64,000 bases of DNA from Nitrospirota bacterium (GTDB lineage: Bacteria; Nitrospirota; Thermodesulfovibrionia; Thermodesulfovibrionales; Dissulfurispiraceae): NCBI GenBank assembly GCA_037440605.1, contig JBBITU010000001.1, positions 9,016 through 73,015 on the forward strand, in the 5' to 3' direction. Under the pieces are notes generated by a model that saw only the letters and a program-made list of their open reading frames with translations, was not told where the DNA came from and made no database searches. Both the position numbers and the translations under genes were made by a program. This document shows, in pieces, positions 31,036 to 63,598 of the stretch. The number at the start of each line of letters is the position of its first letter. Position 1 is the stretch's first letter.

Positions 31036-33333
31036 GTGGGAAAGAAACAGCCTGTTAAACATGACAAAGAGAAGATTTCTTTTGTTGGTCGCATAGGCGG
31101 CAAGCCCCTTATAATCTTTTTTCTAGCCTCCGCAGCAATCCTGACCTTTATTGCCTATCTCAGGTCACTTAATGGTCCGCTCGTATTAGATGATGCTCTC
31201 TATATAAAACCTTCTGAACTGGACGACATCTGGCGAAACCTCAAATTGAAGATCCGATCTGTCTCAGTTTTTTCATTTTCATTGAACTATAATATTTCTG
31301 GAATGAATCTTGCCGGGTTTAGGATTACAAACATCATCCTGCACATTCTTTCTGCCGGACTGGCTTTTTATCTAACCTATATAACATTAACCCTGCCTTC
31401 CATTAAAGAAAGATACAAAACCCTTAATGACAGGGAAATACCACTTTATGCAGCGCTTTTTGTTGCAGTTCTCTTTGCTTTGCATCCCATACAGACCTCA
31501 GCGGTGAATTATATCACTCAAAGGATGGCAATAATGGCATCCATGTTCTCCTTTGCCGGATTAATCTTATACATTAGGGGATCACTAAACACAGGAAAAA
31601 AATCTATACTTTTTTATCTTTTCTCATCGGTCTCTTTTATACTTGCCATCTTTTCCAAGGAGAACGCAGTAATGGCAATTATCATGCTTCCTGTGTATGA
31701 TTTTATCTTTCTCTCCTCTTTGCAATGGAAAGAATTCAAAAAAAGGTTTATCCCACTCTGCGTTATTTTTGGAGCATCGGCTTTATTAGCAGCATCTGCC
31801 ATGAACGTAATGCCATTTCTAAGTCAAATAATTAAACTCGTCTTAAACCCTAATATGCCTATGGAGTGGTATGGCTGGTCAGGCAGGGACATTGACTGGA
31901 CCCCTATCGAATACTTCCTCACAGAGTTAAGGATAGTCTCAAGGTATATATTTATAATCCTTGTGCCTTTGCCTTCCTTGATGGTCTTTGATTATTCAAG
32001 TGCATTTCCTGTATCCAAGGGCCTTTTTGATCCTTTAACTACATTGTTTTCTCTATTATTTCTTTTATCAGCAATGTTTTTTTCGCTGAGGTATATTAAA
32101 AAGGCTCCACTTATCTCTTTTGGCATATTATGGTATCTTGTAACAATTTCACTTGAAAGCTTTGTCGCCCTCGGGTTAGACCCATATTTTGAGCATAGAA
32201 ACTATCTGCCGGCTTTCGGGCTTTTTTTTGCATCTGCTTCCCTGCTCATTAATGTTGATAAAATCCGTGTAGGATTAAGGAAAGAAGCGATTATTGCCTT
32301 CGCCGCCATCTTATTATTTGCTCTTACATTTGTGCGTAATGGAGTATGGGCGGATGATGAAATTCTCTGGAAGGACACCCTTGAGAAATCACCCAATAAT
32401 ACTAGAGCAATGATTGCATTAAGCAGCATCAATATCATGGAAAAGAGATTTCATGAAGCAGGGGAATATCTAAAAAGAGCGCAGGCAGCCTCGCCATCCC
32501 CTATAATCATGCCTAATATTCTATTTAATCAGGCTTCTATCTATAGGCAGACTAACAGGCGTCAGGAGTCGCTTGATATACTTAAGCAATTGGACGAAGA
32601 GAAAGCCTTTCCAAAAGGAGAAACCCGCAGTTTGGTAAGTTACCTTATAGGCGAAATTTTATGTGAACAAGGCGATTTTATTCAGGCAAGGAAATATTTT
32701 AAAAAGGCTTACCGGTGGATGCCCCAAATAGCAGATAATATTATCAACCTTGGACTCGCAAGCAGATCTCGCGGCGAGCTTGATGCGGCTGAAGGCTATT
32801 TCAAGAATGCTGTTGCAATAGCTCCTGAAAAGATTATCCCCTATGTGCAATTAGGAGAAATATATCTCGCGAAAAATGCTATATACAAGGCAGAGGAAAA
32901 ATATCAGGAGGCTATCGCAAAAAAACCGGCAGATGCAGATATCCAAAGAAGAGCATTATTCGGCATGGCTCAGATAAAATTGATAAAGGGAGATGCTGGT
33001 GAAGCAAAAAAACTTTTTCAGGAAGTCATCAAAATTACCCCTGCCTTTTATCCGCCGTATATTTTTTTAGGAAGGATACTTTTAGAAGAAAATGAACCGA
33101 AACAAGCGCTTTATCATCTTGAAAAGGCGCTTTCATTTAAAGCTTCTTTTAAAAAAAATGAACCTAACACGAAACTTTTATATTTTTATCTGGCTAATGC
33201 ATATCTCGCAATAGGAGATAACAAGTTAGCGAGGGAAAATTTGAGTATTTTTATCTCTCTGTATGAGGGAGATAAAAGGCTCGAAAAACAATATGAAAGG
33301 GCAAAGAAGGCATTGGCAAAAATCAAAGAATGA
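31036..33333 (+). CDS. GT-C-fold membrane glycosyltransferase (PMT/ArnT/TMTC-like) fused to C-terminal TPR repeats
   Basis: About 440 aa with 10 or more TM segments. First-loop acidic motif GPLVLDDALYIKPSE. About 320 aa of TPR repeats follow (repeated A..Y..A...P pattern). Confidence 0.7.
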   Translation: MGKKQPVKHDKEKISFVGRIGGKPLIIFFLASAAILTFIAYLRSLNGPLVLDDALYIKPSELDDIWRNLKLKIRSVSVFSFSLNYNISGMNLAGFRITNIILHILSAGLAFYLTYITLTLPSIKERYKTLNDREIPLYAALFVAVLFALHPIQTSAVNYITQRMAIMASMFSFAGLILYIRGSLNTGKKSILFYLFSSVSFILAIFSKENAVMAIIMLPVYDFIFLSSLQWKEFKKRFIPLCVIFGASALLAASAMNVMPFLSQIIKLVLNPNMPMEWYGWSGRDIDWTPIEYFLTELRIVSRYIFIILVPLPSLMVFDYSSAFPVSKGLFDPLTTLFSLLFLLSAMFFSLRYIKKAPLISFGILWYLVTISLESFVALGLDPYFEHRNYLPAFGLFFASASLLINVDKIRVGLRKEAIIAFAAILLFALTFVRNGVWADDEILWKDTLEKSPNNTRAMIALSSINIMEKRFHEAGEYLKRAQAASPSPIIMPNILFNQASIYRQTNRRQESLDILKQLDEEKAFPKGETRSLVSYLIGEILCEQGDFIQARKYFKKAYRWMPQIADNIINLGLASRSRGELDAAEGYFKNAVAIAPEKIIPYVQLGEIYLAKNAIYKAEEKYQEAIAKKPADADIQRRALFGMAQIKLIKGDAGEAKKLFQEVIKITPAFYPPYIFLGRILLEENEPKQALYHLEKALSFKASFKKNEPNTKLLYFYLANAYLAIGDNKLARENLSIFISLYEGDKRLEKQYERAKKALAKIKE

Positions 33334-33500: not shown

Positions 33501-33645
33501 CTAAATAGAGTCTGTTTATAAACTCTAAAATACCCCTCACCCTTACCCTCTCCCGCAAGGGGAGAGGGTTGTTAAATATGCCCCTCCCTTGACGGGAGGG
33601 GTTGGGGGAGGGTGAATAATCGTAATTTATAAACAGACACTATTT
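33501..33645. repeat. family B element (G-rich double-hairpin core)
   Basis: CTAAATAGAGTCTGTTTATAAAC ... AATTTATAAACAGACACTATTT. Confidence 0.85.
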
Positions 33646-33774
33646 AGAGTCCGTTTATAAACTCGTTTTTTGTCACCCTGAGCCTGTCGAAGGGTGATGT
33701 AAATCCTTGTTTTTGCGTCATGGTTCGACAAGCTCACCATGACAATTAGGCATTTATAAACAGACACTAAATAG
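33641..33774. repeat. family B element (GTCACCCTGAGCCTGTCGAAGGGT core), abutting the previous copy
   Basis: TATTTAGAGTCCGTTTATAAACTCG ... CATTTATAAACAGACACTAAATAG. Confidence 0.85.
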
Positions 33775-33850
33775 ATGCGCAAATGAGGATAGGCATGGAA
33801 AAAAATACACATGCTGAAGAATATAATACACACAGCAGCCTATGCGCTGC

Positions 33851-33995
33851 TATTTAGTGTCTGTTTATAAACTATAAAATCCCCCTCACCCTTGCCCTCT
33901 CCCGCAAGGGGAGAGGGTTGTTAAATATGCCCCTCCCTTGACGGGAGGGGTTGGGGGAGGGTGAATAATCGTAATTTATAAACAGACACTATTTA
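33851..33995. repeat. family B element (G-rich core), near-duplicate of 33501..33645
   Basis: TATTTAGTGTCTGTTTATAAACTATAAAATCCCCCTCACCC ... AATTTATAAACAGACACTATTT. Confidence 0.85.
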
Positions 33996-34135
33996 GAGTC
34001 CGTTTATAAACTCTCATTGTTATTGAAGGCTGTCATTCCCGCGAAAGCGGGAATCCAATTCCTTATGTCTGGATGCCCGACTAAGGACCCCCGACTACAA
34101 ACTTCGAGGGCAGGCTTCGGGCATCACAAAAAACA
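33991..34135. repeat. family B element lacking a right terminus (ATTCCC-N8-GGGAAT core)
   Basis: TATTTAGAGTCCGTTTATAAACTCTCATTGTTATTGAAGGCTGTCATTCCCGCGAAAGCGGGAATCC...CTTCGGGCAT. Confidence 0.7.
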
Positions 34136-34387: not shown

Positions 34388-34416
34388 TTGACAATGAATG
34401 CATTAGTGCTTATAAT
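34388..34416 (+). promoter_or_regulatory. consensus sigma-70 promoter (TTGACA-17-TATAAT)
   Basis: TTGACA at 34388..34393, 17-nt spacer, TATAAT at 34411..34416. Confidence 0.65.
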
Positions 34417-34488
34417 TTTTAATATAATCATACGAGGATTAATCCAGTAATTTCTTGCAAAGATAATAGAATGAACTTAAAAAAAGTC

Positions 34489-34517
34489 TTGACAAAGGCA
34501 GGTCGTTTATTTACAAT
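34489..34517 (+). promoter_or_regulatory. near-consensus sigma-70 promoter (TTGACA-17-TACAAT)
   Basis: TTGACA at 34489..34494, 17-nt spacer, TACAAT at 34512..34517. This leaves a leader of about 190 nt. Confidence 0.65.
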
Positions 34518-34713
34518 TATTGCAATAGACGAATGATAAGCGGTTTACCAGCAGCTATCATTAACGGCTGCCGTATGGCACACAATGATTTTTTGATAAA
34601 AAGGAGGTGATTAGGCAAAGAAGGGAGGGATTATTCAGGTTTTTCCGTTTTTGTCCGTTCTTAGCCATTGGCTAAGTTAAGACCAAGCAGTTAATTTAAA
34701 AGGAGGTTCGAAA

Positions 34714-35688
34714 GTGAAGTTTAAGAATTTATTAGTGATTGTAGCAATGATTAGCGTATTATTTTTGAGCATCGGCACATCCCATGCTGTTCCGGGTGTT
34801 GCTGATTATGTGCCCGGCACAGATTCGGTCGTAATCTTCATGTGCGAAGATACCGCTGCCGATCTGGATCCAGTTGTGCCGACCGGGACAATGAATACCC
34901 TGTGGGCAATTGCAGAGACAACAGGTATTAGTGCTGCCGCATCCACATTCATCTTTAACACCAAGAGTGAATTTGTACTCGATGATAGAGCAGGTTGGAC
35001 GCCTCTTGATGTAGTCGTTGACGATTGCCAGAGTATGATTGCCGGTTTGTCACAGGCTAACAGGACGGCGCTCCGCCATACAGTAACAATGAATGGTGTG
35101 GCAAAGACCGTATTTGCCGGCTATGTAGTTTACTTCAACGATGTGTTATCTGACCAGTTTATTTCATGGCAGTATATGGTAGATATGCCTAATGGCTTCT
35201 CCGCAGGCTTCAATGGCTTCTCTGCTGAAGGCGGCGTAGACTTCACCAGTGCTTTCCCGTTTACAGCGAGCAACCTTGCTGAGAACCTTGGATTAGATCC
35301 TGTTAACGCTTTAGAGCTTTATCCAAGATGGTTCTTATTAAACACCAACGCCAACACCTTCAACTGGTGGATAATCCTGAAGGGCGGACCTTCCGTTACC
35401 TCAGGCCACGTCCTCAGCGGCATTGTTTGTGATGAAGCAGAGAATTGCAGGTCAATAGCAATTCCTATACCTCTTAACCTAAACATCATTGATGTAAAAC
35501 CGAATATCCCTGCGGCGCTAAAAGCTAGCTACCCTGCCGGCGGATTCGGCTTATTCGATGTGATCGTCCCCTCCAATCGCAGCATACTCGGCTGGTCATA
35601 CCAGAGAGCAGCAACAAATGCTATAGCAACAAACTGGGATGTAATTCATCCGATGCATAGATGGGGTCCAATTCCAGTACCACAATAA
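34714..35688 (+). CDS. secreted protein of unknown family (paralog 1; candidate major surface-structure protein)
   Basis: GTG start 7 nt after an AGGAGG RBS. Sec signal peptide MKFKNLLVIVAMISVLFLSIGTSHA|VPG. No motif I recognise. It aligns in blocks with 40624..41631. Confidence 0.8.
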   Translation: MKFKNLLVIVAMISVLFLSIGTSHAVPGVADYVPGTDSVVIFMCEDTAADLDPVVPTGTMNTLWAIAETTGISAAASTFIFNTKSEFVLDDRAGWTPLDVVVDDCQSMIAGLSQANRTALRHTVTMNGVAKTVFAGYVVYFNDVLSDQFISWQYMVDMPNGFSAGFNGFSAEGGVDFTSAFPFTASNLAENLGLDPVNALELYPRWFLLNTNANTFNWWIILKGGPSVTSGHVLSGIVCDEAENCRSIAIPIPLNLNIIDVKPNIPAALKASYPAGGFGLFDVIVPSNRSILGWSYQRAATNAIATNWDVIHPMHRWGPIPVPQ

Positions 35689-35713
35689 ATTGATCTCATT
35701 ATGAGAGTTTTAA

Positions 35714-35744
35714 AAAGGGATGGGCTTGCCCATCCCTTTTTTTA
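35714..35744 (+). terminator. rho-independent terminator
   Basis: GGGATGGG-CTTG-CCCATCCC followed by TTTTTTT. Confidence 0.8.
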
Positions 35745-35765
35745 GTTACTTAAGGAGGCTTGTTA

Positions 35766-36071
35766 ATGAAGATTTTTATTATTGCAATCTGTTATATCTT
35801 TTTCACATTTGGCTCCATTTACGCAGATGCCCCGCAGGAGGTTGTCCTTGGGGTGATAAAGCATGTAAATTGTAAAGACGGGGAAGTTACCCTGACCACA
35901 AGATCAGGCGATGTCCTTTTTTATATTGGTAAAGATGCAGCTTATAATACAGCGCAAGGCTGCGAGGATATAAAAGAAGGTTATATAGCAGTGCTTAAAT
36001 ACAAAAATGAGGACGGCAAAAAAACCGCTTCATTAATAAAGATTAAAATTCCGGGAGAGGTAAAAAAATGA
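35766..36071 (+). CDS. small exported protein, unknown function
   Basis: An AAGGAGG RBS lies 7 nt upstream of the ATG at 35766. Signal peptide MKIFIIAICYIFFTFGSIYA|DAP. About 80-aa mature protein. Confidence 0.65.
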   Translation: MKIFIIAICYIFFTFGSIYADAPQEVVLGVIKHVNCKDGEVTLTTRSGDVLFYIGKDAAYNTAQGCEDIKEGYIAVLKYKNEDGKKTASLIKIKIPGEVKK

Positions 36072-37303
36072 GAATATCCTCAGCTTTACTTATTCTTATT
36101 CTGTTCCTTTATGGTTGTGCTGGGGTAACAAAAAGCCTGCAATCAGACAGCGAGAGTCTTTACACAATAACCCCTGCATCAACAGGGCTTCCTGCAGATG
36201 GTCTCTGGCGGGAAAACATTATTCTTTATGACTTTAACGGCGATGGCTCTATCGAAATTCTCGCTCCTCCTCCGAGAAAGGCAAAACCCGAAGAGAAAAA
36301 ACCTTTCGTCTTTGTTTTTGATACAAAAGATAAAAAATGGTCTGAACAAAAATATGCCTTTCCAACACTCGACTATGATTACGGCGGGATAGCCGCCGGT
36401 GATATAAACAGGGACGGCTTTACAGATATAGCACTGGCAACCCACAGAGGCAGGCTTCATCTGCTGATAAATAATGGAGACGGAACCTTTAGTAATGCGC
36501 CTTTTCCTGTAAAAGAAGATTTCTACTCGAGAAAAGTGACAATAGCTGATATAAATGGAGACGGCTGGCTTGATATTGTTGCCATCTCTGAAGCCCCATT
36601 CACCAAAGGATATGTCCCGAAAGGCTTGCTGATTGCAATAAACAAAGAAGGCAGGGATTGGGAGATAACCCTTATAGGCGACAGCATGGGTTTATTCTCA
36701 GATTTTCTCTCTGTTGGAGATATTAATGGAGACGGAGCGCTTGACATTGTGATATCTCCATTTACTGCTGTTAGGGATGATATGAAAGCCGTCTGGCTGG
36801 GAGACCGCAAGGGCGGCTTCATTCATTACAAGTCAGATTTTACGGGTGATATGCTGACCGAGCAGGTCAGGACAGGCGATATTGACGGTGACGGAAAAGA
36901 TGAGATTGTTTATATTCTTTCTGGAATGGGCGAAAGCGCCGCATTCCCATTAAAGGCATTCAAATGGAGTCCTGAGGGAATCAAGGACATCTCAGAGGGG
37001 CTACAGAAGATTAAAAAAACACTCGTTTTTGATCTTGCGGACATTGACGGAGACGCTAAAAAAGACATCGTTCTCCTATCTGATGAGGGACTCCATATCT
37101 TTAAATACAGCGGCTCTGGATGGGTTGAACTTTTCCGCCATCCCATTCCTTCTAAGGAAATTTTGGGCGCTGAGGATCTAATGACAGCCCAACAGTCTGA
37201 CGGCTCATTTATCATAGCATACAGCCTTGGCATGGAAAACCCTGAGTTTCAAAGAGGTATCAGGGCTTTTATTTTAAACCCCAAAAGGGGGGCGGACAAA
37301 TGA
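36068..37303 (+). CDS. lipoprotein with FG-GAP/VCBS repeats (predicted beta-propeller)
   Basis: Lipobox LFLYGC. Six repeats of the Ca-binding-like motif: DFNGDGSIEIL, GDINRDGFTDIAL, ADINGDGWLDIVA, GDINGDGALDIVI, GDIDGDGKDEIVY, ADIDGDAKKDIVL. It has an ATGA overlap with the upstream ORF. Confidence 0.8.
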   Translation: MRISSALLILILFLYGCAGVTKSLQSDSESLYTITPASTGLPADGLWRENIILYDFNGDGSIEILAPPPRKAKPEEKKPFVFVFDTKDKKWSEQKYAFPTLDYDYGGIAAGDINRDGFTDIALATHRGRLHLLINNGDGTFSNAPFPVKEDFYSRKVTIADINGDGWLDIVAISEAPFTKGYVPKGLLIAINKEGRDWEITLIGDSMGLFSDFLSVGDINGDGALDIVISPFTAVRDDMKAVWLGDRKGGFIHYKSDFTGDMLTEQVRTGDIDGDGKDEIVYILSGMGESAAFPLKAFKWSPEGIKDISEGLQKIKKTLVFDLADIDGDAKKDIVLLSDEGLHIFKYSGSGWVELFRHPIPSKEILGAEDLMTAQQSDGSFIIAYSLGMENPEFQRGIRAFILNPKRGADK

Positions 37304-37695
37304 AGCTCCGATTCTTCTTAATTTTCTTATGTATCCTTCTATTTGCAGGCTGCGCTACGACACCAACAAAGGCTGATATTGAGCAGTCTTTGAGGGAAAG
37401 GGCAGAGGCTTACTGGAAGCTAAGGATGGCAGACAAATATGAGGAGACCTATGAAATGGAATACAAGGAAGGTCTTCCGCCCTTTGCAGAATATCTTGAT
37501 AAGGTGAGGGCTATGAAGAAGATACATATCGTCGGTCATTCCATTAAAAGCATTAAAACAGACGGGCAGAATGGCACAGTAGAAGTAGAAATAAGATTTA
37601 TCCTGCCCATAACCACAAAACCTTTTAAGCAGACATTGCCGGATTTATGGGTCTATGAGAGAGGTAAATGGCGGCATCAGCTTCCAAAGAATTGA
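37300..37695 (+). CDS. small lipoprotein, unknown function (possibly NTF2-like fold)
   Basis: Lipobox LLFAGC. 131 aa. It has an ATGA overlap with the FG-GAP gene. Confidence 0.6.
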   Translation: MKLRFFLIFLCILLFAGCATTPTKADIEQSLRERAEAYWKLRMADKYEETYEMEYKEGLPPFAEYLDKVRAMKKIHIVGHSIKSIKTDGQNGTVEVEIRFILPITTKPFKQTLPDLWVYERGKWRHQLPKN

Positions 37696-37730
37696 CACTT
37701 TTTGTCAAAGAAATGACAAGAATGGGCTTT

Positions 37731-37946
37731 AACTTATAATTCCCTGCAGCTTGCTGCTGGGTTTCCTTGTTTGTTGTCATTCTGGCTTGTCCAGAATTTT
37801 TCTTGAACAAACCCCTGAACCCAACTTGGCAAAGGGGGAGCAAAAAAGGATTCCCGCCCTGCCTGTGCCGTTGGCATGGCAGACAGGCGCGCTTCGCTTG
37901 CGGGAATGACATGAATTAGGGAATTTTGTGCAATTTATAAACAAAC
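37731..37946. repeat. composite repeat remnant (hairpin modules plus a degenerate family B right terminus)
   Basis: GTCATTCTGGCTTGTCCAGAAT, GGATTCCCGCCCTGCCTGTGCC...GCAGACAGGCG, CGCTTCGCTTGCGGGAATGAC, then CAATTTATAAACAAAC. These modules are shared with 25894..26046. Confidence 0.6.
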
Positions 37947-38099
37947 TTTTTTCTGAGCAATTGAAACAGATAAGGTTTCCATCTGGTATGAACTTTGCAC
38001 ATTAATCATTATATGAATTATGCGAAATTGGAAATATTCCGCATAATATAGTGGTTAGAAACCCATAATATCAGATGATATAAAATTAGGAGGTGCAGT

Positions 38100-39128
38100 A
38101 TGAATATGAAAAGGATTATTTTCTTTATCATCACTTTCATGACCTTAATATTTGGTCAGAATTTGTGGGCTGCGGAGACAAGCTTTTTTGACCCGGCAAC
38201 AGGCATGATTATAAGGGCTTATACAATTGAACATAGTGGAAAATACACAGTTGAAATTGAGGTGGTTACAACAAGCAACGAAACATCAGAGGACGCAAAA
38301 TTCGAATGTGGAACTTCTACAAAAGCTAATCCTGCCATGATTATACAGGATGCAGACAGTCCGGATATAAGTATGGCGTTTAATGCCTCCCAGAGAAAAG
38401 CGTATGTTTTTTATACACTCGATAATCAGATCAAGCTGGCGTCTTGCGAGCTTATAGTAGATGACAAAATACTCCCGACTGTAAGCATAACCTCTCCAAC
38501 CCATAACGCTGCTGTCTCAGGCAATGTGACCCTTTCAGCAAACGCATCTGACAATATTGGTGTGGCAGGCGTGCAGTTCAAGGTTAATGGCAATAATATG
38601 AATTCAGAAGATACCTCTGCGCCCTATTCAGTAGTATGGGATTCAACTAAGGTTCCTAATGGCACCTATACGATTACTGCGGTTGCAAGAGATGCCGCTA
38701 ACAACTCCGCAACATCTGCGGCAGTTCAAGTAACTGTTTCAAACAATCCAGTCGTCGCAATGCCCGATCTCATTGTAACTACTGTTACACCACCCAGAGG
38801 CTGGGACAATAACACTCCAGGCAATGTTTTTGTAGCGATACAAAACATTGGAAGCGCAGCGGCTGGCGCCTTTAAGGTAAGGGGATACTTCTCTGTCGAT
38901 CAGATACCAAATAACGGAGGGACGCCTAAAGATTCTCTCCTCTTCACATGGGATGTGTCAGGGCTTGCAGCGGGTCAGACAGCGAGTCGGACATTTACTT
39001 GTTCTTTTAGTGGTTTCCCAATCCATGCATCCTATTATGTTGTCGTCAAGGTTGATTCTGACAATAAGGTGTCAGAGAGCAATGAATCTAACAATGTAAA
39101 GACTTATCTTGTTAATGTATCAAGATAA
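38100..39128 (+). CDS. secreted protein with Ig-like domain and C-terminal CARDB domain
   Basis: Signal peptide ...GQNLWA|AET. Ig-like segment ITSPTHNAAVSGNVTLSANASDNIGVAGVQFKVNG...TAPYSVVWDST..NGTYTITAVARDAANN. CARDB-like PDLIVTTV...ESNESNN tail. Confidence 0.8.
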   Translation: MNMKRIIFFIITFMTLIFGQNLWAAETSFFDPATGMIIRAYTIEHSGKYTVEIEVVTTSNETSEDAKFECGTSTKANPAMIIQDADSPDISMAFNASQRKAYVFYTLDNQIKLASCELIVDDKILPTVSITSPTHNAAVSGNVTLSANASDNIGVAGVQFKVNGNNMNSEDTSAPYSVVWDSTKVPNGTYTITAVARDAANNSATSAAVQVTVSNNPVVAMPDLIVTTVTPPRGWDNNTPGNVFVAIQNIGSAAAGAFKVRGYFSVDQIPNNGGTPKDSLLFTWDVSGLAAGQTASRTFTCSFSGFPIHASYYVVVKVDSDNKVSESNESNNVKTYLVNVSR

Positions 39129-39164
39129 TCCGTAAGCTGATATTTGAAATATAATTTTGATGAA

Positions 39165-39190
39165 GGCGGGGCAGATGTCCCGCCTTTTTT
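39165..39190 (+). terminator. rho-independent terminator
   Basis: GGCGGG-GCAGATGT-CCCGCC followed by TTTTTT. Confidence 0.75.
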
Positions 39191-39356
39191 GTGGTAGGAC
39201 GATAGAGCTATAATGGGGGTGGTTACATAAATATCGAATAGTTCTGGAATCATATATGCCAAATGCGCTTCTTGGATAAAGAACAGAAAAATTTAGGGAG
39301 TGTTCTCTTTTTATTCAGTTATAATATACCTCATAGGGAAAAAGTGAGGATATGAA

Positions 39357-40544
39357 ATGTGCAAAACAGCCGTAGTAATCATTAATGAAAATTGCTTTAA
39401 GGCGATAGAAGAAGAGACGGCAAGAAGCACGTCGAGACATCTTTTACTGGAGGCACAGGGTAAGCAGATGGATCTATTCCAGATTGACAAAAACAAGCCT
39501 TTAACAATATCAGACCTAAAACCCAAAGACTATGATGTGTTTGTGTTCATATCAGGCATCGTTTTTATAACTCATAAGGGCATTGCTGCCCTGTCTAATC
39601 TATCTTTAATCCGAAAGGAATTCTCCATTATCGCCCCAGTTAGCAATTTATCCAATGTATTATTGCAGAGGCAGTCTCCCCCTTTTTTTTACCAGACTTT
39701 GACAGTATTTAGATGGGCAACAGAGAAAATTCTCATGGAGTTTCAGGATACGGTTGTTGAGGCTGATGAGATTGACGACTTCTGTTTTGCCCTGAAAAAA
39801 GAAATGCTCCAAGAGCTGCCGGCAAGTCTTAGTCTGTATGATCTCCACCACGCCTTGAAAGAGAAAAAAATAAAACAAGGTATCGCAAAAGGCGTTTATG
39901 TCCACCGCTATGGAAATGTTTATGAAAGCGGCAGGGATGACCTTTTGCAGTATGTGCCTTTGGATGCTCAGAACATACTCGATGTAGGCTGTGCCAGAGG
40001 ACTCACCGGTGAGCTGATTAAAAAAAGGCAGAGGGGCGTCGTTACAGGCGTGGAAATGGACACTGAAATGGCTGTTATAGCTGCTTCAAGATTAGACAAT
40101 GTCATAAATGGTGATATCGAAGAGTTGATAGGCAGGGGAAATTTAGGACTATATGACTGCATCATGTGCGGAGATGTCCTTGAGCATCTTAACAATCCAT
40201 GGAAGGTTGTAAAAGGGCTGAAATCACATCTGAAAAAAAAGGGGATTTTTATCGCAAGCACTCCTAATATTATGAACTGGGCAATTATTTATGAACAACT
40301 CAATGGCAGATGGGACTATGTGCCATTTACTATCCTCTCGGGCGAGCATGTGCGGTTTTTCACAAAAGACACTTGCAGGGAGATGTTTGAATGTGCCGGG
40401 TATAAAATAAGGGCGATACATCTCCAGAGCTTCAGCATTCCTCCTAAGGGAACTGTATTCATAGAAAATCTAAAGAAAGCAGTGACTGGAATAAATGAGG
40501 AAGAATTGCATGCATCCGAGATAGTAGTAGTGGCTGAGGGGTGA
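39357..40544 (+). CDS. class I SAM-dependent methyltransferase with an N-terminal domain of unknown function
   Basis: C-terminal half has ILDVGCARGLTGELI (motif I) and CIMCGDVLEHL (motif II/III region). The N-terminal ~190 aa are unassigned. Confidence 0.7.
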   Translation: MCKTAVVIINENCFKAIEEETARSTSRHLLLEAQGKQMDLFQIDKNKPLTISDLKPKDYDVFVFISGIVFITHKGIAALSNLSLIRKEFSIIAPVSNLSNVLLQRQSPPFFYQTLTVFRWATEKILMEFQDTVVEADEIDDFCFALKKEMLQELPASLSLYDLHHALKEKKIKQGIAKGVYVHRYGNVYESGRDDLLQYVPLDAQNILDVGCARGLTGELIKKRQRGVVTGVEMDTEMAVIAASRLDNVINGDIEELIGRGNLGLYDCIMCGDVLEHLNNPWKVVKGLKSHLKKKGIFIASTPNIMNWAIIYEQLNGRWDYVPFTILSGEHVRFFTKDTCREMFECAGYKIRAIHLQSFSIPPKGTVFIENLKKAVTGINEEELHASEIVVVAEG

Positions 40545-40570
40545 TGAGAATTATTAAAAGTGGTTATACC

Positions 40571-40614
40571 TTTTGTGGTCAGGGAGGGAATATACCCCTG
40601 ACCACAAAATTTTT
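40571..40614. terminator. long hairpin between convergent genes (terminator, T-run on the plus strand)
   Basis: TTTTGTGGTCAGGG-N11-CCCTGACCACAAAA followed by TTTTT. Confidence 0.65.
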
Positions 40615-40623
40615 CAATCAACC

Positions 40624-41631
40624 TTAAGGCAGCCAATGAGGCAGAATCGTTGACTCAAACATTGCCTCCCATGTCAAGGCAGGATTTAAAGGATAATTGG
40701 CGGAGTTAAATGAAAACGCATAAACATTAAAGTTTTCAGGTATGTCGTTAATCCATATCTGTCCATTTATGTCTCCTAAGACATCAATGACATTCACAAT
40801 TCTGTTAAGACTGAGCGTGCCAGATGCAATTTGAACGCCAGCCTCATTGAAATACCAATAAGGGAACGGCCCTCCCACATCTCCAGGAGCAGTCGTTGTG
40901 CCATATGCAGCAGGACCCCATGCCCAGAAAACGATCCTGGTCTCGCCGTTGCCCGCTACATATACCCGGCTTATAGTATGATTAAGCTTATTATCAGGGT
41001 CATCTATGATGGATAAGCCGCGTGTTGTACGATATGCATAATACCTTGCGTGATTGTCAATCTCTTCCCTGTCATCGCCTGATTGATATAACCCTCTCGC
41101 ATTTGGGTGAAGAGCTACGCTCAATCCGCCTTCTATATGCACCATGGGGATCCCGTTTGCAGCGCCTTCAAGAAGCCTCACATAATAAATCCAGCCTGTC
41201 AGGCAGTTGGCGCTACGAAATGGATACAGCGGGTTAACAGGTAAATGAGTCGTGCCTGCAGTCACTAAATCAATTGTCATAAAGCCTCTGTAAAAGTCTC
41301 CGTCTGTAAGCTGAGTGCGCACAGCAGGACTGGCTGAGGCAAGGATAGAGCCGAAATCGCTGACGAATGAACCGGTAAATGTTACATTTCCATATGCATT
41401 GGTTGCGTTGCCGTTTACATCCCATATTTCCCAGTGAATGGTTTGGGATCCTGAACATAAACTATCTACAACAATTAGTGTGTTATGGACACTCGTAATC
41501 CCTTTCTCCATCAGTGGAACAATTAGTGTGGCTGACTGGACTTGGTCAGGAATTCCAATGACCGCCTGTGCGCTGCTGCTGTAGCTGATTAATAACAAGA
41601 CTGCAATAATGCAGAAAAAAATCTTCTTCAT
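40624..41631 (-). CDS. secreted protein of unknown family (paralog 2 of 34714..35688)
   Basis: An AAGGAGGG RBS precedes the ATG. Signal peptide MKKIFFCIIAVLLLISYSSSAQA|VIG. Colinear similarity blocks with paralog 1. Confidence 0.8.
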   Translation of the reverse strand: MKKIFFCIIAVLLLISYSSSAQAVIGIPDQVQSATLIVPLMEKGITSVHNTLIVVDSLCSGSQTIHWEIWDVNGNATNAYGNVTFTGSFVSDFGSILASASPAVRTQLTDGDFYRGFMTIDLVTAGTTHLPVNPLYPFRSANCLTGWIYYVRLLEGAANGIPMVHIEGGLSVALHPNARGLYQSGDDREEIDNHARYYAYRTTRGLSIIDDPDNKLNHTISRVYVAGNGETRIVFWAWGPAAYGTTTAPGDVGGPFPYWYFNEAGVQIASGTLSLNRIVNVIDVLGDINGQIWINDIPENFNVYAFSFNSANYPLNPALTWEAMFESTILPHWLP

Positions 41632-41779
41632 AAACCCTCCTTAAAAAATGCTAAAGAAATTACTAAATGCTCTCTGTTACTGGGAAAGTCATCCCGAATC
41701 GCTGCAAAAAATCTTGTGCCAATTCGCATTCAAACCGCACCTTATATGAAGTATAGCGATTATACCCTCTTTGGCAAAG

Positions 41780-42117: not shown

Positions 42118-44100
42118 TTACTTTTTTTCTGCAATGATGACGGCATAATCATTATCCAGTATCTTTTCCCTGATAAGGGTATCTTCAAGAAAAAGTATCA
42201 TTTTTATTAAAGCCGCATCTTTTTCACTATCATGGTCAAAATTACCGATTATATTATTAAACAGAAGATTATAAAGGGAGCCTCCGAAATACCTTATCAT
42301 TCTTATTTCAAAGTATTTTTTAAGTGTCGGGATTATGTCATGCGAGCGAATCGCCTCTGAGGGATCGGTGCGGTTCATGTGTTCAAGGGAAGGTCTTTCA
42401 ATATGTGTTATTAGATGTCCTGTAACTGGGTCTGTCCTTAACCTTTCAGGCAGGATGGTCAGAACACTGTTTGCTATATTTATCTGTCTGTCCGTCCACT
42501 GGAATTGATTGGGGCCTATATACTCCTGCGCCACTACAAGCCCTGCTTCCTTCAGGGCGTCTTTCACATTTTTGCAAACACCATCGAGGTTTTCTATATG
42601 GTGAAGCGCCGACCATGAAAAGAATATATCATAATGGTCATGTTTAAACACGGCATTATTTACATCTTCAATGTGGAAATTTATTTTATACCCTCTCTCT
42701 TTAGCTATCCTGACACCTTCTTTAACCCTCTCCTCAGCTATCTCGTATGCATCAATTGATTTGCAGATATTATTGTCAATCACACCCCTTTCAAAATCCC
42801 CTGAGCCGCTGCAGATACTCAAGCCCTTTTGCAGGTGGCTATTGACAAACTCATTTCTGAGGAATTGGTAAAAATTCATCTTTGGGTCTCCTGTAACAAG
42901 CCTCTGGCAATGTTCAAGAATCACCGGAGAGTCCCACCAGTACATTTTCTGTTCAAGTTTTTGGGTTGTGTGATAATTGTCCCAGCTTCTTTTTGTCTTT
43001 TCAAGTTTATCTCTTCTCGTGATTTCTTCAAAGGCATATTCAAGTCTCTCAACTACTCTTTGTTTTGTAAATTTACCGGCAACCTCCAGCCCACGCTTTA
43101 TAAGCCTCTCTCTCAAAGCCTTGTTATGCACAATTTCCACAATTGCTTTTGCAATTGACTCAATGTCCATATTATCTGCATTTTCTACGAAAAGGGCATA
43201 ATCCTGCTTTTCATCAAAGCTTGTATGTGATGATATACTGCTCAGGATTGTGGGCACGCCGCATGCCATAGCTTCGAGGGCAGGGAGTCCAAATCCCTCA
43301 GCCTCCTTTGAAAGTGAAACTAAAAGGTCAGCATCCCTATAAATCTCACCCATTGAAGGATAGGGGATATGAAAGTGATAGATATCGGGTTTAAATATTG
43401 CTTCCTCCTCTTTTGAAAGCGGCAGTTGTGATGCCCTTATAAGCTGAACTGGGATATTCAGTCTTTTGCTGGCAAGTGAGGCGCCTCTTAGTGCGGTTGC
43501 TATGTTTTTTACATCTGCTTCAAATGGACCTACCACAAGGATATTGAAGGGTTCAAGGGTTCTATTATTTGATGTTTTTAGAAAAGATGCGATCTTTCCC
43601 CACCTTTTTAGCGAAGCTAATCCATGGTCCCGATTAGTTTGTTCTTTTGGGAAAAAAATATCTTTATTCAACATTTGTCCAATATAATGTGTTTCTGCAT
43701 TGAACTTCTCTTTAAGGAAAACGGAGAGATGAAGAGATGTGGTCAGTTTCTGAGGAATAAGGGAGTAGGCTCTATCTATATCGTTTTTTAATCCGGCATA
43801 CTCTTTTATCCCCCCTTCATAGCCCTGACAGAGATGGAAGATTGCTCCATTTTTTGAATCAGCTACAGGTTTAATGGTCTTCCATGATGTTGCAATCACA
43901 ATATCTGCAGCGGGGATAAGTGAAGGATCAAGCCTTTCGATATGGTGCAGCGGCACTTTAAGCGGATACCAGTTGGGATTTTCTCCGGTAGTGGTAAGAA
44001 ATGCTTCATGCCCAATCATGGCAAGCTGTTCAAGGTGCTGGAAGACAACATGTATTCCGCCCCAAAGTCCTGTATCCTCGGTCACGTAGGTGATTTTCAT
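42118..44100 (-). CDS. bifunctional glycosyltransferase (GT4-like, N-terminal) / SAM-dependent methyltransferase (C-terminal)
   Basis: The N-terminal ~370 aa carry SKEAEGFGLPALEAMACGVPTI (E-x7-E). The C-terminal ~250 aa carry GLSICSGSGDFERG (motif I-like) and FSWSALHHI. Confidence 0.75.
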   Translation of the reverse strand: MKITYVTEDTGLWGGIHVVFQHLEQLAMIGHEAFLTTTGENPNWYPLKVPLHHIERLDPSLIPAADIVIATSWKTIKPVADSKNGAIFHLCQGYEGGIKEYAGLKNDIDRAYSLIPQKLTTSLHLSVFLKEKFNAETHYIGQMLNKDIFFPKEQTNRDHGLASLKRWGKIASFLKTSNNRTLEPFNILVVGPFEADVKNIATALRGASLASKRLNIPVQLIRASQLPLSKEEEAIFKPDIYHFHIPYPSMGEIYRDADLLVSLSKEAEGFGLPALEAMACGVPTILSSISSHTSFDEKQDYALFVENADNMDIESIAKAIVEIVHNKALRERLIKRGLEVAGKFTKQRVVERLEYAFEEITRRDKLEKTKRSWDNYHTTQKLEQKMYWWDSPVILEHCQRLVTGDPKMNFYQFLRNEFVNSHLQKGLSICSGSGDFERGVIDNNICKSIDAYEIAEERVKEGVRIAKERGYKINFHIEDVNNAVFKHDHYDIFFSWSALHHIENLDGVCKNVKDALKEAGLVVAQEYIGPNQFQWTDRQINIANSVLTILPERLRTDPVTGHLITHIERPSLEHMNRTDPSEAIRSHDIIPTLKKYFEIRMIRYFGGSLYNLLFNNIIGNFDHDSEKDAALIKMILFLEDTLIREKILDNDYAVIIAEKK

Positions 44101-45072
44101 CTAAAGGGGGCTCGTGCATCTGGAACATAGAGGGATTTTACTGAATTCATGCTTTAGGTGAATGTCCCTGAGTCTTCTCAGTCGGGGGCTGTTCCAGATA
44201 TCCTTAAGACTTTCCCTCGAAACATCACCGATGACTAACGCCCCTTCAGAATCATAACAGCATGGAGAGACTCTGCCGTCAAAATATACCGTGAGATTTT
44301 TCCAAAGCATCCTACACGGGCGATGAACCTTTTGGCGGGAGTTTTTGTTTATAGCCATGTCCTGGACGTTCCCTGCCCAGTCATTATAATCAGCTACCTG
44401 TATTATATCGCCTGCACCTATTTTTGCTGACCATTGTGAACGGAAATCCTCTATCTCAGCCTCTGTAGCCTTCATCCTGATGATGCGAAGCACAAGACGC
44501 GGAGTTTTTTTACTTCCCCTAATCTTTAAAAACCGATGGATATTCTCCATTACTATTTTAAAACTACTATTTACCCTCACAGATTCATACGTCTCTGCAG
44601 TAGTTCCATCTATTGTAATTACGATCGCATCAACAAGGTCCATAAGTTCATACGATGCTTCTTCTTCAAAACGCAACCCATTTGATAAAACTAATATAGG
44701 GCATATGCCAGCATCATGCGCAAAGCCAATGAGTTGATAGTATTCTTTATGCAGTAATGGCTCTCCGAATCCCTGAGGCAGAAAGAGAAACCCAGACTCT
44801 TTAGAGAGTTCAATTACCGTTTTTTTGAAAATCTCCTTTTCCATATATCCCCGTTTCCGCTTCATCTGCGGCACAGGGCACATTACGCATCTGAGATTGC
44901 AATGATTCGTGAGTTCAAGTGCCATCTCAAGGGGGAAATCAATCCCTTCCCATTGCATTGGGTCGCATGACGATAGCTTTCGGGCATTAAATAAATACTT
45001 CTGTTCTTTTTTGGGAAGGAAAAGCTCTTTCAGGAAAGCGAGTTCATCAGACAATTCATCTTTTTCAACCAT
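44101..45072 (-). CDS. radical SAM enzyme with C-terminal SPASM-like Cys cluster
   Basis: CNLRCVMC (CX3CX2C) at the N-terminus. C-terminal cysteines at CRMLW...SPCCYD...PLCSRC. Its stop abuts the start of 42118..44100. Confidence 0.8.
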   Translation of the reverse strand: MVEKDELSDELAFLKELFLPKKEQKYLFNARKLSSCDPMQWEGIDFPLEMALELTNHCNLRCVMCPVPQMKRKRGYMEKEIFKKTVIELSKESGFLFLPQGFGEPLLHKEYYQLIGFAHDAGICPILVLSNGLRFEEEASYELMDLVDAIVITIDGTTAETYESVRVNSSFKIVMENIHRFLKIRGSKKTPRLVLRIIRMKATEAEIEDFRSQWSAKIGAGDIIQVADYNDWAGNVQDMAINKNSRQKVHRPCRMLWKNLTVYFDGRVSPCCYDSEGALVIGDVSRESLKDIWNSPRLRRLRDIHLKHEFSKIPLCSRCTSPL

Positions 45073-45178: not shown

Positions 45179-47476
45179 ATGAGTAAGAGAATCTTTGGGG
45201 TAAGGACAGCCATGAGCTTTCTTGCAGGCATAATACTGCTTATAGCATTTACAGTCTTGACTGTATCTGGGGCTTATGGAGTGATTACAGAACAACAAAA
45301 GACACCGTTTAAGATCCTCAATGCCGTTGCCTCCGGTCAGCCTTACGATATTATTGTTCTTTTTGATGACACTATCATTAAAAGCAAGGCTGATGCAATG
45401 CGCCGGGATATCGGAGTTTACCACGACACACCTGAAATACTCAAAATGAAAGAGTCAGAATACGCTTCTCTGAAACGAAAAGTTACAGGATTTCTTCCTG
45501 CAGGAGAACAACAATCCATAAAGGAATACAGTCATCTTCCTATGACTTTTATGAGGGTGATGAGCATAGAAAGTCTTACGAAGCTTTTGAATATGCCTGA
45601 GGTAGTTAGAGTATATGAGAACAGGATCAGATACCCGGTTTTTTCTTCCAGTATTCCTTTCATTAACAAGCCTCAGGTGGCAGCGCTTAATATGAAAGGG
45701 GCTGAAACTGCAATTGTGGTGCTTGATACAGGGCTTAAATATAGCAACTCAGCCTTTGGCATCTGCTCTGGCGCTAATAAACCTGCTGATTGCTGTCCTG
45801 GAGGCGATTGCAATACTGCCCCACCTTTTGCTCCACGAGACTGTAATGTTGCATGTGTTCATAATTTTGCGCCAAATGATGGACAGCCTGACGCTGACGG
45901 ATATGGGACTAATGCTGCAAGCATTGTTGTTGGTGTTGCCCCTGATACAAAGGTTATAGGTCTCGATGTCTTTACAGATGCAGGCGCCTATGACTCTGAC
46001 ATAATCGCTGCAATCAACTGGTCTATAGCTAAAAAGGCAGCTTATAATATCGTCGCCATTAATATGAATTTTGGTGACGGCATTAAATACACTTCACAAT
46101 GTCCTGATGACTCTTTGGCATCTTCTATAAGTAGCGCCAGAGCTGCCGGGATATTATCTGTTATTGCAGCAGGGAATGAAAACTATACGAATGGTCTTTC
46201 CTCGCCTGCCTGTGTTCCTGATGCAATCTCTGTAGGTGCCGTGTATGAATCGAATATAGGAGGAGTAAGCTATTCCAACTGCACCGATTCGACCACAGCA
46301 GCGGACAAGGCAGCCTGCTTTTCTAACAGCGCTGACTATCTGAGCATATTAGCTCCGGGTTCTTATATGACTGCGTCAGGGTTTGCCATGCTTGGAACTT
46401 CACATGCCGCTGCTTACATAGCAGGCTCGATTGCGGTTTTGCGCGGGCAAAATGCCTTCCCTTCAGAGACTATAAATCAAACCGCTGCCAGATTGACCAA
46501 TACAGAAGTCTTTGTGCTCGACCAAAAAAGCGGCATCACCAAGCCAAGGGTTAATCTCCTCTCAGCAGTTAGTGCAGCCGAGGCTGAATTCTCCATTTCG
46601 GGCATAGTGCTATCTGGAACCACTCCACTTTACGGAGTTACTATGACCTTGAGCGGAGCAGCATCTGCAACTGCTATAACAAACCGTATGGGCAGTTACA
46701 GCTTCACAGGTCTTGGAAATGGCAGCTATACCGTGACTCCATCAAAGGCAGGGTTTGTCTTTGGTCCACAATACAAAAGCATTACGATAGAAAATTCAAA
46801 TATGCCTGATATAAACTTCGAAGCAACAGGCAGCGGCGGGTGCACATACACAATCTCACCCAAGAGCCAATCATTCACAACAGGAGGCGGCAGCGGCAGT
46901 GTGGCAGTTGCAGCAGGCGCTGGCTGTGCATGGACAGCAGTGAGTAATGCTGCATGGATTACTATTACAGGAGGCAGCAGCGGGAGCGGAAATGGAACAG
47001 TTAACTATTATGTTTCATCAAACACAGGTTCAGCAAGAACAGGGACGATGACAATTGCAAAACAGACATTCTCTGTTAGTCAGTCTGGGACAGGAGGCTC
47101 TTTATTGCCAGACCTCATAGTAACCTCCGTTCTTGCGCCGAGGGGCTGGGACAACAATGTGCAAGGGACAGTTACGGTAGCGATAAAAAATATTGGAAGC
47201 AATGCCGCAGGCGCCTTTAAGGTAAAGGGATACTTCTCTGTCGATCAGATACCAAATAACGGAGGGACGCCCAAAGATTCTCTCCTCTTCACATGGTATG
47301 TGACAGGCGGACTTGCCGCGGGTCAGACAAGGAGTCGGACATTTACTTGTTCTTTTAGTGGTTTCCCAATCCATGCATCCTATTATGTTGTCGTCAAGGT
47401 TGATTCTGACAATCAGGTGTCAGAGAGCAATGAATCTAACAATGTAAAAACTTATCTTGTTAATGTATCAAGATAA
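45179..47476 (+). CDS. subtilisin-like (S8) protein with atypical catalytic site, followed by CarboxypepD_reg-like, BACON-like and CARDB domains
   Basis: N-terminal anchor/signal. S8 motifs VVLDTG (D183), GYGTNAASIVVG where HGTHVAG is expected (Y242), AAGNEN, and GTSHAAAYIAG (S408). Then SISGIVLSG...GSYTVTPSKAGF, then GCTYTISP...CAWTAVSNAAWITI, then the CARDB tail. Confidence 0.8.
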   Translation: MSKRIFGVRTAMSFLAGIILLIAFTVLTVSGAYGVITEQQKTPFKILNAVASGQPYDIIVLFDDTIIKSKADAMRRDIGVYHDTPEILKMKESEYASLKRKVTGFLPAGEQQSIKEYSHLPMTFMRVMSIESLTKLLNMPEVVRVYENRIRYPVFSSSIPFINKPQVAALNMKGAETAIVVLDTGLKYSNSAFGICSGANKPADCCPGGDCNTAPPFAPRDCNVACVHNFAPNDGQPDADGYGTNAASIVVGVAPDTKVIGLDVFTDAGAYDSDIIAAINWSIAKKAAYNIVAINMNFGDGIKYTSQCPDDSLASSISSARAAGILSVIAAGNENYTNGLSSPACVPDAISVGAVYESNIGGVSYSNCTDSTTAADKAACFSNSADYLSILAPGSYMTASGFAMLGTSHAAAYIAGSIAVLRGQNAFPSETINQTAARLTNTEVFVLDQKSGITKPRVNLLSAVSAAEAEFSISGIVLSGTTPLYGVTMTLSGAASATAITNRMGSYSFTGLGNGSYTVTPSKAGFVFGPQYKSITIENSNMPDINFEATGSGGCTYTISPKSQSFTTGGGSGSVAVAAGAGCAWTAVSNAAWITITGGSSGSGNGTVNYYVSSNTGSARTGTMTIAKQTFSVSQSGTGGSLLPDLIVTSVLAPRGWDNNVQGTVTVAIKNIGSNAAGAFKVKGYFSVDQIPNNGGTPKDSLLFTWYVTGGLAAGQTRSRTFTCSFSGFPIHASYYVVVKVDSDNQVSESNESNNVKTYLVNVSR

Positions 47477-56281: not shown

Positions 56282-56376
56282 TTCTATGGCCTCCTGAGCC
56301 TGAAAAAACATATTTTTTAGAAAAAAATGCTTTTGGCTTTGTATGATGAATACTTTAATTTATAAAAAGCTGCGCC

Positions 56377-63596: not shown

Positions 63597-63598
63597 GA

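Follow-up and report, generated by a model that had tools for sequence, protein, structure and literature searches.

Two paralogous secreted proteins at a glycan-synthesis locus of a Nitrospirota bacterium, candidate components of a surface coat

The surface-layer (S-layer) and coat proteins of different organisms share little or no sequence similarity (PMC8671808) and therefore escape searches based on homology. S-layer genes are monocistronic and, in Gram-positive bacteria, can adjoin slg clusters, which carry wzm/wzt and the capping enzyme WsaE, a glycosyltransferase (GT) joined to a methyltransferase (PMC2943079). The present analysis deals with a stretch of 64,000 nucleotides from a Nitrospirota bacterium (contig JBBITU010000001.1, positions 9,016 to 73,015; the whole stretch is hereafter referred to as the window) and with two of its genes, A and B, which encode divergent secreted proteins. 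Paralogy of the two proteins is supported by profile and structure comparisons, and their context suggests that they are glycan-associated structural proteins of the outer envelope, forming an S-layer-like coat or a component of one, a reading to which a probability of about 0.4 is assigned. The two genes are as follows.

34714..35688, + strand: gene A, precursor of 324 residues with a signal peptide at residues 1-25 (open reading frame call); two beta-sandwich domains
40624..41631, - strand: gene B, precursor of 335 residues with a signal peptide at residues 1-23 (open reading frame call); two beta-sandwich domains

In the slg loci of Geobacillus stearothermophilus and Paenibacillus alvei (PMC2943079), as in the window, a monocistronic gene for a surface protein (in the window, a putative one) with a signal peptide lies beside a glycan cluster with wzm/wzt, several glycosyltransferases, a chain-capping glycosyltransferase-methyltransferase fusion and, nearby, a membrane protein bearing tetratricopeptide repeats (TPR). 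The window carries Wzm, Wzt with a Wzt_C domain, a GT4-methyltransferase, and GT2 and GT4 genes near A and B. Unlike the slg surface proteins, however, A and B belong to a diderm host, are related to SgsE and SpaA neither in sequence nor in fold, and their glycosylation is putative. Their locus includes a radical S-adenosylmethionine (SAM)/SPASM enzyme and an FG-GAP/CARDB gene set, and no oligosaccharyltransferase of the Wzy_C type was detected in it by Pfam, the TPR protein of 765 residues included, whereas its relatives have YfhO.

Among diderms, Aeromonas hydrophila AH-1 exports the surface-layer protein VapA through Sec, and its S-layer and secretin (SpsD) genes lie beside wzm/wzt in an O11-antigen cluster that depends on an ABC-2 transporter (PMC4413209). 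Aeromonas has a whole dedicated type II secretion gene set, whereas the Nitrospirota relatives have the secretin only and the window has none; VapA, moreover, is a single protein of 52 kDa with an unrelated sequence, in contrast to the two paralogous proteins considered here. A further parallel is mela_00855 of Methylomirabilis lanthanidiphila, a small S-layer protein of 31.6 kDa with a signal peptide, encoded beside glycosylation genes in a diderm, for which BLAST found no homologue but one M. oxyfera protein (PMC8671808). Compared by description, mela_00855 differs in ending with an IPTL-CTERM sorting domain, a tail which is lacking in A, in B and in the family member of a Methylomirabilota-labelled assembly (locus L009, 55% identical to B, C-terminal end ...STIIAE).

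Homology, predicted structure and family of the two proteins

Comparison of the two sequences alone gave a divided result. BLASTP detected no relationship between A and B (E-value 0.55) and the local Smith-Waterman score was no better than that of shuffled sequences, 119 of 300 of which reached it, but the global alignment score (z = 3.2) was reached by none of 300 shuffles and the comparison of profiles was significant. Alignment of the A and B family alignments with hhalign gave a probability of 98.4% and an E-value of 7.3e-15 over 296 columns, as against 0.15 for a reversed-template control. The E-value was still 3.5e-11 without the signal peptides, which are therefore not the cause of the match, and 3.1e-8 when the N-terminal motif was removed as well. 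The match is colinear by domain, with E-values of 4e-12 for the N-domains and 1.3e-4 for the C-domains (0.02-0.56 in N-versus-C controls). Identity amounts to 19% over 252 aligned mature positions, close to the 20% or so estimated in the sequence-only reading, whose by-eye alignment agrees with that of hhalign in all five blocks.

The wider family and the structural models point the same way. Of 234 collected family proteins, 97 score above 25 bits on both the A and the B family hidden Markov models (HMMs), and the intermediates P0223, P0184 and P0178 score nearly equally on the two. The A and B models were also compared in DSSP state through the hhalign alignment: 76.6% of positions agree (90% in the N-domain), as compared to 33-54% in shifted controls. 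Homology over the full mature length, and hence the old duplication proposed earlier, is supported by these lines of evidence; both branches are large and the A+B pair recurs in the same gene order at at least four independent Nitrospirota loci, which bears out the word old. That two unrelated secreted proteins came to look alike by chance or composition, as the BLASTP and local scores taken alone would allow, is excluded by the profile and structure evidence.

The AlphaFold2 model of B is confident (predicted local distance difference test, pLDDT, 92.7; predicted template modelling score, pTM, 0.89), while that of A reaches a pLDDT of 73.9 and a pTM of 0.73. The independent models have the same order of secondary-structure elements, arranged in both as two beta-sandwich domains and a less conserved linker, so that the beta-rich character supposed from the sequences holds. 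Internal duplication of the two domains was not detectable by sequence (E 0.13-0.56). Foldseek found no whole-chain analogue in the PDB (both models) or in BFVD (model B), the TM-scores being 0.24 or less; the best neighbours were a Pleurotus ostreatus lectin, arrestins, XepA, antibody fragments and phage tail proteins. The lectin (PDB 6T1D), a tandem beta-sandwich, is the top whole-chain match of B with an E-value of 7.7e-5. It shares with arrestins, XepA and the two models a pair of consecutive beta-sandwich domains of about 150 residues each, but with TM-scores of 0.13-0.19 and root-mean-square deviations (RMSD) above 17 Å this likeness extends to the domain class only.

A single domain of both models resembles TM1070 (PDB 1NC7), with a Foldseek probability of 1.0, a target-normalised TM-score of 0.58-0.67 and an RMSD of 5-6 Å. 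TM1070 belongs to the ASRAH/ASRT superfamily (Pfam DUF1362) of eight-stranded beta-sandwich proteins, predicted sugar binders whose extracellular two-domain forms, or dyads, are linked to glycosyltransferase genes and have been proposed to bind cell-surface polysaccharides (PMC2739507). The resemblance appears to be at the level of fold only, because A and B have no sequence-profile match to the superfamily and their translations do not carry its SHEshChhN signature; the dyads, in addition, are actinobacterial lipoproteins, unlike A and B. A fold of the sugar-binding type, as hinted at here, would fit anchoring of the proteins to the glycan of the cell itself.

The open reading frames and Sec signal peptides described previously were recovered as such. 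Each precursor starts with a basic n-region and a hydrophobic core, after which comes an AxA cleavage site (TSHA|VPG in A, SAQA|VIG in B), the start codon being GTG in gene A, as in its orthologues, and ATG in gene B. Direct reading of the translations found no Cys at position +1 and no hydrophobic C-terminal tail in either protein (the ends read ...WGPIPVPQ in A and ...ILPHWLP in B), consistent with the earlier view that a lipobox, an anchor and a sorting tail are missing. The lack of a recognisable domain was likewise borne out: A and B gave zero matches in Pfam (E up to 0.1), NCBIfam and PHROGs, the family profiles reached at best an E-value of 0.55 against PDB sequences, and no known family was met in any library searched. 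The mature proteins have masses of 32.2 kDa (A) and 34.2 kDa (B) with isoelectric points of 4.4 and 4.8; Asn (7.0-7.4%) and Trp (about 3%) are plentiful, as had been noticed, while Lys, Cys (1.3% in A, 0.6% in B) and Met are scarce, and the hydrophobic fraction is 0.59 in A and 0.55 in B. This acidic, hydrophobic and Cys-poor composition, together with the secretion signal, fits S-layer proteins, though the features are not specific to them. The alignment of the A family contains four invariant cysteines (C44, C105, C239 and C245), which include a C-x-E-x-E-x-C loop (VCDEAENC) and occupy positions not conserved in the B branch; they suggest that the A branch alone has disulfide bonds and, perhaps, a loop that binds a cation.

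Gene A has the highest guanine plus cytosine (GC) content in the window (0.470), and gene B stands at 0.451 against a mean of 0.408 (standard deviation 0.027). The GC-richness remarked on by eye is thus real, but it lies largely at codon position 2 and therefore reflects the content of Ala, Gly, Pro, Thr and Ser; a smaller excess is found at codon position 3. Codon adaptation was calculated with the ribosomal protein operon at 55280-64000 (- strand; rpoA, S4, map, secY and further ribosomal genes) as the reference. Codon bias is weak genome-wide, the reference genes scoring 0.71-0.78 as compared to 0.70 for other genes.

Initial searches collected 19 homologues of A and 71 of B, all named 'hypothetical'. 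A merged A/B profile, searched against 1.84 billion representative proteins, retrieved 892 representatives (clustered at 50% identity) with an E-value cut-off of 1e-3; stricter cut-offs of 1e-10 and 1e-30 left 373 and 130 of them. A set of 138 new representatives, again at 50% identity, divides into 78 A-like and 60 B-like proteins. The taxonomy of the members is that of the labels and titles of public assemblies. By record titles, the 37 B-branch loci in species-representative genomes are distributed among Acidobacteriota (23, mostly Thermoanaerobaculia), Desulfobacterota (9), Nitrospirota/Thermodesulfovibrionales (4) and Methylomirabilota (1). One carrier has been cultured, the Desulfobacterota strain NaphS2, whose protein EFK05544.1 is recorded as a 'conserved hypothetical protein'. 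Several genomes have two or three copies or tandem pairs, multiple copies being common in the family, although phmmer searches with A and B found no third copy among the open reading frames of at least 60 residues in the window. No informative name or precomputed Pfam domain was met among about 170 homologues, and no recognisable fused domain in the longer family members, save in both cases for one CARDB fusion that may be an artefact of assembly or gene calling.

The best-conserved stretch among 132 representatives is formed by the first 17 or so mature residues, A-x-A | x-x-G-x-x-D-x-V-P-...-P, with conservation at G+3, D+6, V+8, P+9 and P+16. Beyond it, near-invariant residues are sparse (T51, G116, Y149, G156, G160, E167, E189, R222, N280, G290 and W321 in B numbering). 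The A/B superfamily is a new protein family, present in no curated library searched and without a solved relative.

Expression signals and conserved neighbourhood

Genes A and B look monocistronic. The signals that accompany them are listed below.

34388..34416, + strand: distal promoter-like site of gene A, TTGACA-17-TATAAT, 12/12 (consensus match)
34489..34517, + strand: proximal promoter of gene A, A-tract and TTGACA-17-TACAAT, 11/12 (conserved at the DNA level)
34601..34611, + strand: AAGGAGGTGAT in the leader of gene A, fully complementary to the anti-Shine-Dalgarno sequence, some 110 nt ahead of the start codon
34660..34676, + strand: leader hairpin CTTAGCC-ATT-GGCTAAG, 7 pairs (RNAalifold)
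34700..34706, + strand: Shine-Dalgarno sequence AAGGAGG of gene A, with the GTG 7 nt downstream
35717..35743, + strand: intrinsic terminator after gene A, GGGATGGGC-TT-GCCCATCCC followed by T7 (read from the sequence)
40575..40605, - strand: hairpin GTGGTCAGGG...CCCTGACCAC separating gene B from the convergent methyltransferase gene, with no T-run on the B strand
41636..41642, - strand: Shine-Dalgarno sequence AAGGAGG of gene B, with the ATG 4 nt downstream
41750..41777, - strand: promoter-like site of gene B, TTGCCA-16-TATACT, 10/12 (consensus match only, not clearly conserved)

The proximal promoter of gene A and its leader of about 200 nt are conserved as DNA in five loci whose A proteins are 31-50% identical, and a site comparable to the distal one (TTGACA-17) occurs at the aligned position in the related loci L002/L003 and L006. 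The element AAGGAGGTGAT is invariant in all five aligned leaders and recalls the STAB-SD mRNA stabiliser (Agaisse and Lereclus 1996, cited here as it stands in the reference list of PMC7509114), so that we infer by analogy a possible role in mRNA stabilisation. Three of the seven pairs of the leader hairpin have both partners changed, yet still paired, in one sequence out of four. For gene B, the alignments of the leader were inconsistent with regard to conservation. In a survey of 48 non-redundant family genes, in which the choice of start codon favoured good Shine-Dalgarno sites, 63% carry the GGAGG core, and the 70 nt downstream of the genes form stabler folds than background sequence, with a median of -27.0 kcal/mol against -22.2 kcal/mol (p 0.0016). 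Rfam and tRNA scans of the window returned no matches, and a search of the literature on the promoter and leader properties of S-layer genes, on Thermodesulfovibrio S-layers and on the NaphS2 proteome found nothing usable.

A 'gene' of 52-56 residues upstream of A in relatives was considered as a precursor peptide and rejected, being a gene call laid over the conserved promoter and absent from the window. The false calls (L002:9704-9874 and L004:5681-5839) align with window positions 34480-34560, and their 'peptide' KKSLTKE.PFI.MEAN is the A-tract with TTGACA-17-TACAAT read in frame, KKSLTKE corresponding to AAAAAAAGCTTGACAAAGGAA.

The two genes are convergent and 4.9 kb apart, and the five intervening genes comprise four for exported proteins and one for a cytoplasmic methyltransferase; the arrangement pictured earlier, of opposite genes 5 kb apart bracketing genes for exported proteins, is accordingly what is found. 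The neighbouring genes of interest are the following.

31036..33333, + strand: polytopic membrane protein of 765 residues with C-terminal TPR repeats, upstream of gene A
35760..36071, + strand: small secreted protein s103 (103 residues), first gene of a three-gene operon, beside A in L002-L005
36068..37303, + strand: FG-GAP repeat lipoprotein of 411 residues (Pfam FG-GAP_3, E 4.7e-31), conserved in L002-L008
37300..37695, + strand: lipoprotein lipo131 (131 residues) without a known domain (open reading frame call, relatives)
38100..39128, + strand: secreted Big_7 and CARDB protein of 342 residues (Pfam), with a terminator at 39162-39187
39357..40544, + strand: SAM-dependent methyltransferase of 395 residues, a conserved partner of gene B
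42118..44100, - strand: GT4-methyltransferase fusion of 660 residues, travelling with gene B across phyla
44101..45072, - strand: radical SAM/SPASM protein of 323 residues, travelling with gene B across phyla
47618-48466, + strand: Wzm (ABC-2 permease), export of lipid-linked glycan
48466-49644, + strand: Wzt (ATPase with a Wzt_C domain), export of lipid-linked glycan

The genes for s103, the FG-GAP lipoprotein and lipo131 form one operon, since their stop and start codons overlap. The glycan-synthesis cluster extends from about 26.2 to 51.7 kb and reads GT2, GT4, GT4, the 765-residue membrane-plus-TPR protein, A, the intervening genes and B, followed by the GT4-methyltransferase, the radical SAM/SPASM gene, an S8 protease gene, Wzm, Wzt, a GT2 and a GNAT acetyltransferase. 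A recurrent order of A, s103, FG-GAP lipoprotein, lipo131, Big_7/CARDB, (YfhO), methyltransferase, B, GT4-methyltransferase, radical SAM/SPASM and Wzm/Wzt is seen on Nitrospirota contigs whose A and B proteins are just 32-69% identical to those of the window. In these relatives, the methyltransferase gene is separated from the CARDB gene by that of the YfhO-type membrane glycosyltransferase. They also have a secretin gene, which in L002/L003 and L004/L005 is the second gene upstream of A, PIG-L being the one in between, and which in L006 is found close to A. The remaining type II secretion gene set was not seen in L002/L003, L004/L005, L006 or the window.

A smaller module crosses lineages and consists of B with a GT4(-methyltransferase), the radical SAM/SPASM gene, a methyltransferase and Wzm/Wzt, as in NaphS2 and locus L046. 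In NaphS2 a PIG-L-GT2 fusion is placed immediately upstream of B with other GT genes on the same side, and an ABC ATPase, a radical SAM/SPASM gene and a GT-methyltransferase on the other; the order in L046 is Wzt-Wzm-GT4-B-...-radical SAM-methyltransferase-YfhO. The radical SAM/SPASM gene of this module (window 44101-45072, - strand; L002, L038 and L046) is consistently attached in Nitrospirota, NaphS2 and L046, and its product falls below every NCBIfam cut-off, with a best match of 93.7 bits against a cut-off of 380. A formylglycine-type motif, S-x-A-x-R (SQANR in A, SPAVR in B), was considered as its target and discarded as a chance occurrence, as it is not conserved in the family alignment.

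Several other features of the cluster were recorded. A secreted S8 subtilase with CarboxypepD_reg, BACON and CARDB domains (45179-47476, + strand) is encoded between the radical SAM gene and wzm, and has its CARDB module in common with the Big_7/CARDB protein between A and B. The architecture of the 765-residue protein resembles that of TPR-bearing protein O-glycosyltransferases or oligosaccharyltransferases, a likeness that is unproven. At the left edge of the cluster stands an IS110-family transposase gene (24736-25815, - strand) with copies of the dispersed repeat described next on both sides (24459 and 26027). An intergenic repeat, similar to miniature inverted-repeat transposable elements or repetitive extragenic palindromes, is found at 33501-34013, with further copies at about 6805, 22444, 24459, 26027, 27745, 29494, 29614, 51954 and 52206. 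It comprises two direct copies of 164 nt, 96% identical, with 22-nt inverted termini (CTAAATAGAGTCTGTTTATAAA / TTTATAAACAGACACTATTTAG) and G-rich palindromes inside; the window holds 15 copies of its core GTTTATAAACTC, where 0.46 would be expected, and the repeats occupy a gap of 1.4 kb where the relatives have the secretin and PIG-L genes. Unrelated to A and B, the gene for a protein of the bacterial archaeo-eukaryotic release-factor family 10 (baeRF_family10, E 4e-28; 17686-18867, - strand) shares 68 nt with the beginning of an AI-2E transporter gene that has the same orientation.

The coat reading and its alternatives

A and B are read here as structural proteins that form part of the surface of their host, a diderm with the label Nitrospirota. 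This is because they are exported, apparently non-enzymatic beta-sandwich proteins with strong and conserved expression signals of their own, and because exported or lipid-anchored repeat proteins and, in the relatives, a secretin are encoded nearby, within a glycan cluster of the ABC-transporter type with methyl-capping enzymes. The multiple copies and tandem paralogues of the family are also counted in favour of a coat.

On this reading, each gene would be transcribed alone from a strong promoter, the leader of A possibly stabilising its mRNA. Sec would take the precursors across the inner membrane, and folding would follow in the periplasm, where the four invariant cysteines of A would fit two disulfide bonds. 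The export across the inner membrane is evident from the predicted signal peptides. Passage across the outer membrane we infer from the secretin two genes upstream of A in the relatives, which would probably serve as its route there. At the surface, the proteins would associate with, or be decorated by, a methyl-capped glycan exported through Wzm/Wzt, with at least one lectin-like beta-sandwich domain binding this glycan. An accessory or anchoring function would fall to the other exported products encoded between A and B (the FG-GAP lipoprotein, s103, lipo131 and the Big_7/CARDB protein). The scheme presumes that the two proteins lie at the surface, bind the glycan or are glycosylated, and assemble by themselves.

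A more specific form of the coat reading, tentative and on balance unlikely, would make A and B the two subunits of a heteromeric S-layer or coat built from a new two-beta-sandwich fold family, exported by a stand-alone secretin and coupled to a glycan that is methyl-capped and modified by the radical SAM enzyme, in hosts labelled Nitrospirota, Thermoanaerobaculia, Desulfobacterota and Methylomirabilota. The free mature N-terminus would then be an assembly arm or a signal for export across the outer membrane.

Several points weigh against a coat. Its probability is set no higher because the abundance, the surface exposure and the assembly of A and B are predicted properties. Codon adaptation, tried as a sign of high expression, gave the opposite result, the values of A (0.647) and B (0.657) being among the lowest in the window (mean 0.699, standard deviation 0.024). 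The masses of 32-34 kDa lie below the 40-200 kDa usually quoted for S-layer proteins (PMC8671808). The Pfam scan and the reading of the sequences found no SLH-like anchoring module or sorting tail in A or B, and the poor whole-chain structural matches (TM-scores below 0.25) confine the lectin analogy to the level of fold. The membrane half (about 435 residues) of the 765-residue TPR protein matches no Pfam family, Wzy_C and PMT included, even at E-values up to 1. Secretin, PIG-L and YfhO are all missing from the 64-kb window, which together with the IS110 transposase and the repeat copies flanking it suggests that the locus was rearranged in this genome. Finally, not all of the family is linked to glycan clusters: members on one Thermoanaerobaculia contig and three others are isolated among housekeeping or unrelated genes.

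The main competitor to the coat, in itself rather unlikely, would have A and B as soluble periplasmic or secreted glycan-binding accessory factors of the Wzm/Wzt polysaccharide pathway, which might accompany the glycan, whether lipid-linked or finished, set its size or pass it on. The tight linkage of B to the GT4-methyltransferase, radical SAM/SPASM, methyltransferase and Wzm/Wzt genes in three lineages would suit such a role, as would the fold-level similarity to the predicted sugar-binding ASRAH domain and a tandem lectin, the presence of a Sec signal only, and the low codon adaptation. It accounts poorly, however, for the many family members far from glycan genes, for a strong promoter, Shine-Dalgarno sequence and terminator of the genes' own, outside the biosynthetic operons, and for the secretin and several exported proteins of structural type that are conserved around A. 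ABC-transporter-dependent pathways, moreover, are not known to have a soluble component of this kind.

As secreted two-domain beta-sandwich proteins of a multi-copy, divergent family, with weak structural neighbours that include an exported protein (XepA), a lectin from a fungus and phage proteins that bind receptors, A and B might alternatively be adhesins or lectins for foreign targets (other cells, or the surfaces of minerals or polymers) or resemble toxins, and take no part in the envelope of the producing cell. This is improbable, given that the genes keep the same order in a self-glycan cluster in several genomes, that Pfam, NCBIfam and PHROGs reveal no toxin, pore-forming or known adhesin domain, and that the structural matches are non-specific (TM-scores below 0.25). 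Very improbable, too, is an enzyme (hydrolase, lyase or transferase) on a new beta-sandwich scaffold, acting on the cluster glycan or the cell wall: near-invariant charged or polar residues (D29, E167, E189, R222, Y149 and N280 in B numbering) and the location within a glycan cluster speak for it, but no enzyme family was matched by sequence, the PDB, although rich in beta-jelly-roll hydrolases and lyases, yielded no convincing structural match among them, and the best-conserved element is the mature N-terminus and not a cleft-like motif.

Meaning for the family and its hosts

What A and B most probably are, secreted surface proteins of beta-sandwich build with ties to a glycan cluster, is a familiar kind of protein and would not surprise a specialist. 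The A/B family is, at the same time, a well-defined, widespread and experimentally approachable unknown. The envelopes of the mostly uncultured lineages that carry it, namely Nitrospirota/Thermodesulfovibrionales, Thermoanaerobaculia, Desulfatiglans-like Desulfobacterota and Methylomirabilota, are almost uncharacterised. The analysis provides a superfamily of about 900 representatives without a Pfam, NCBIfam or PDB entry, one confident model (B, as given above) and a signature motif at the mature N-terminus, together with a conserved neighbourhood that ties the family to glycan synthesis of the ABC-transporter type and to a secretin. In the cultured strain NaphS2 (EFK05544.1), the location and function of a family member are directly testable. 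If A and B do not form a coat, the family would still be a well-defined target for a new domain-family entry; if they do, it would offer a handle on the cell-surface biology of these organisms, on studies of phage receptors and on their detection or enrichment with antibodies.

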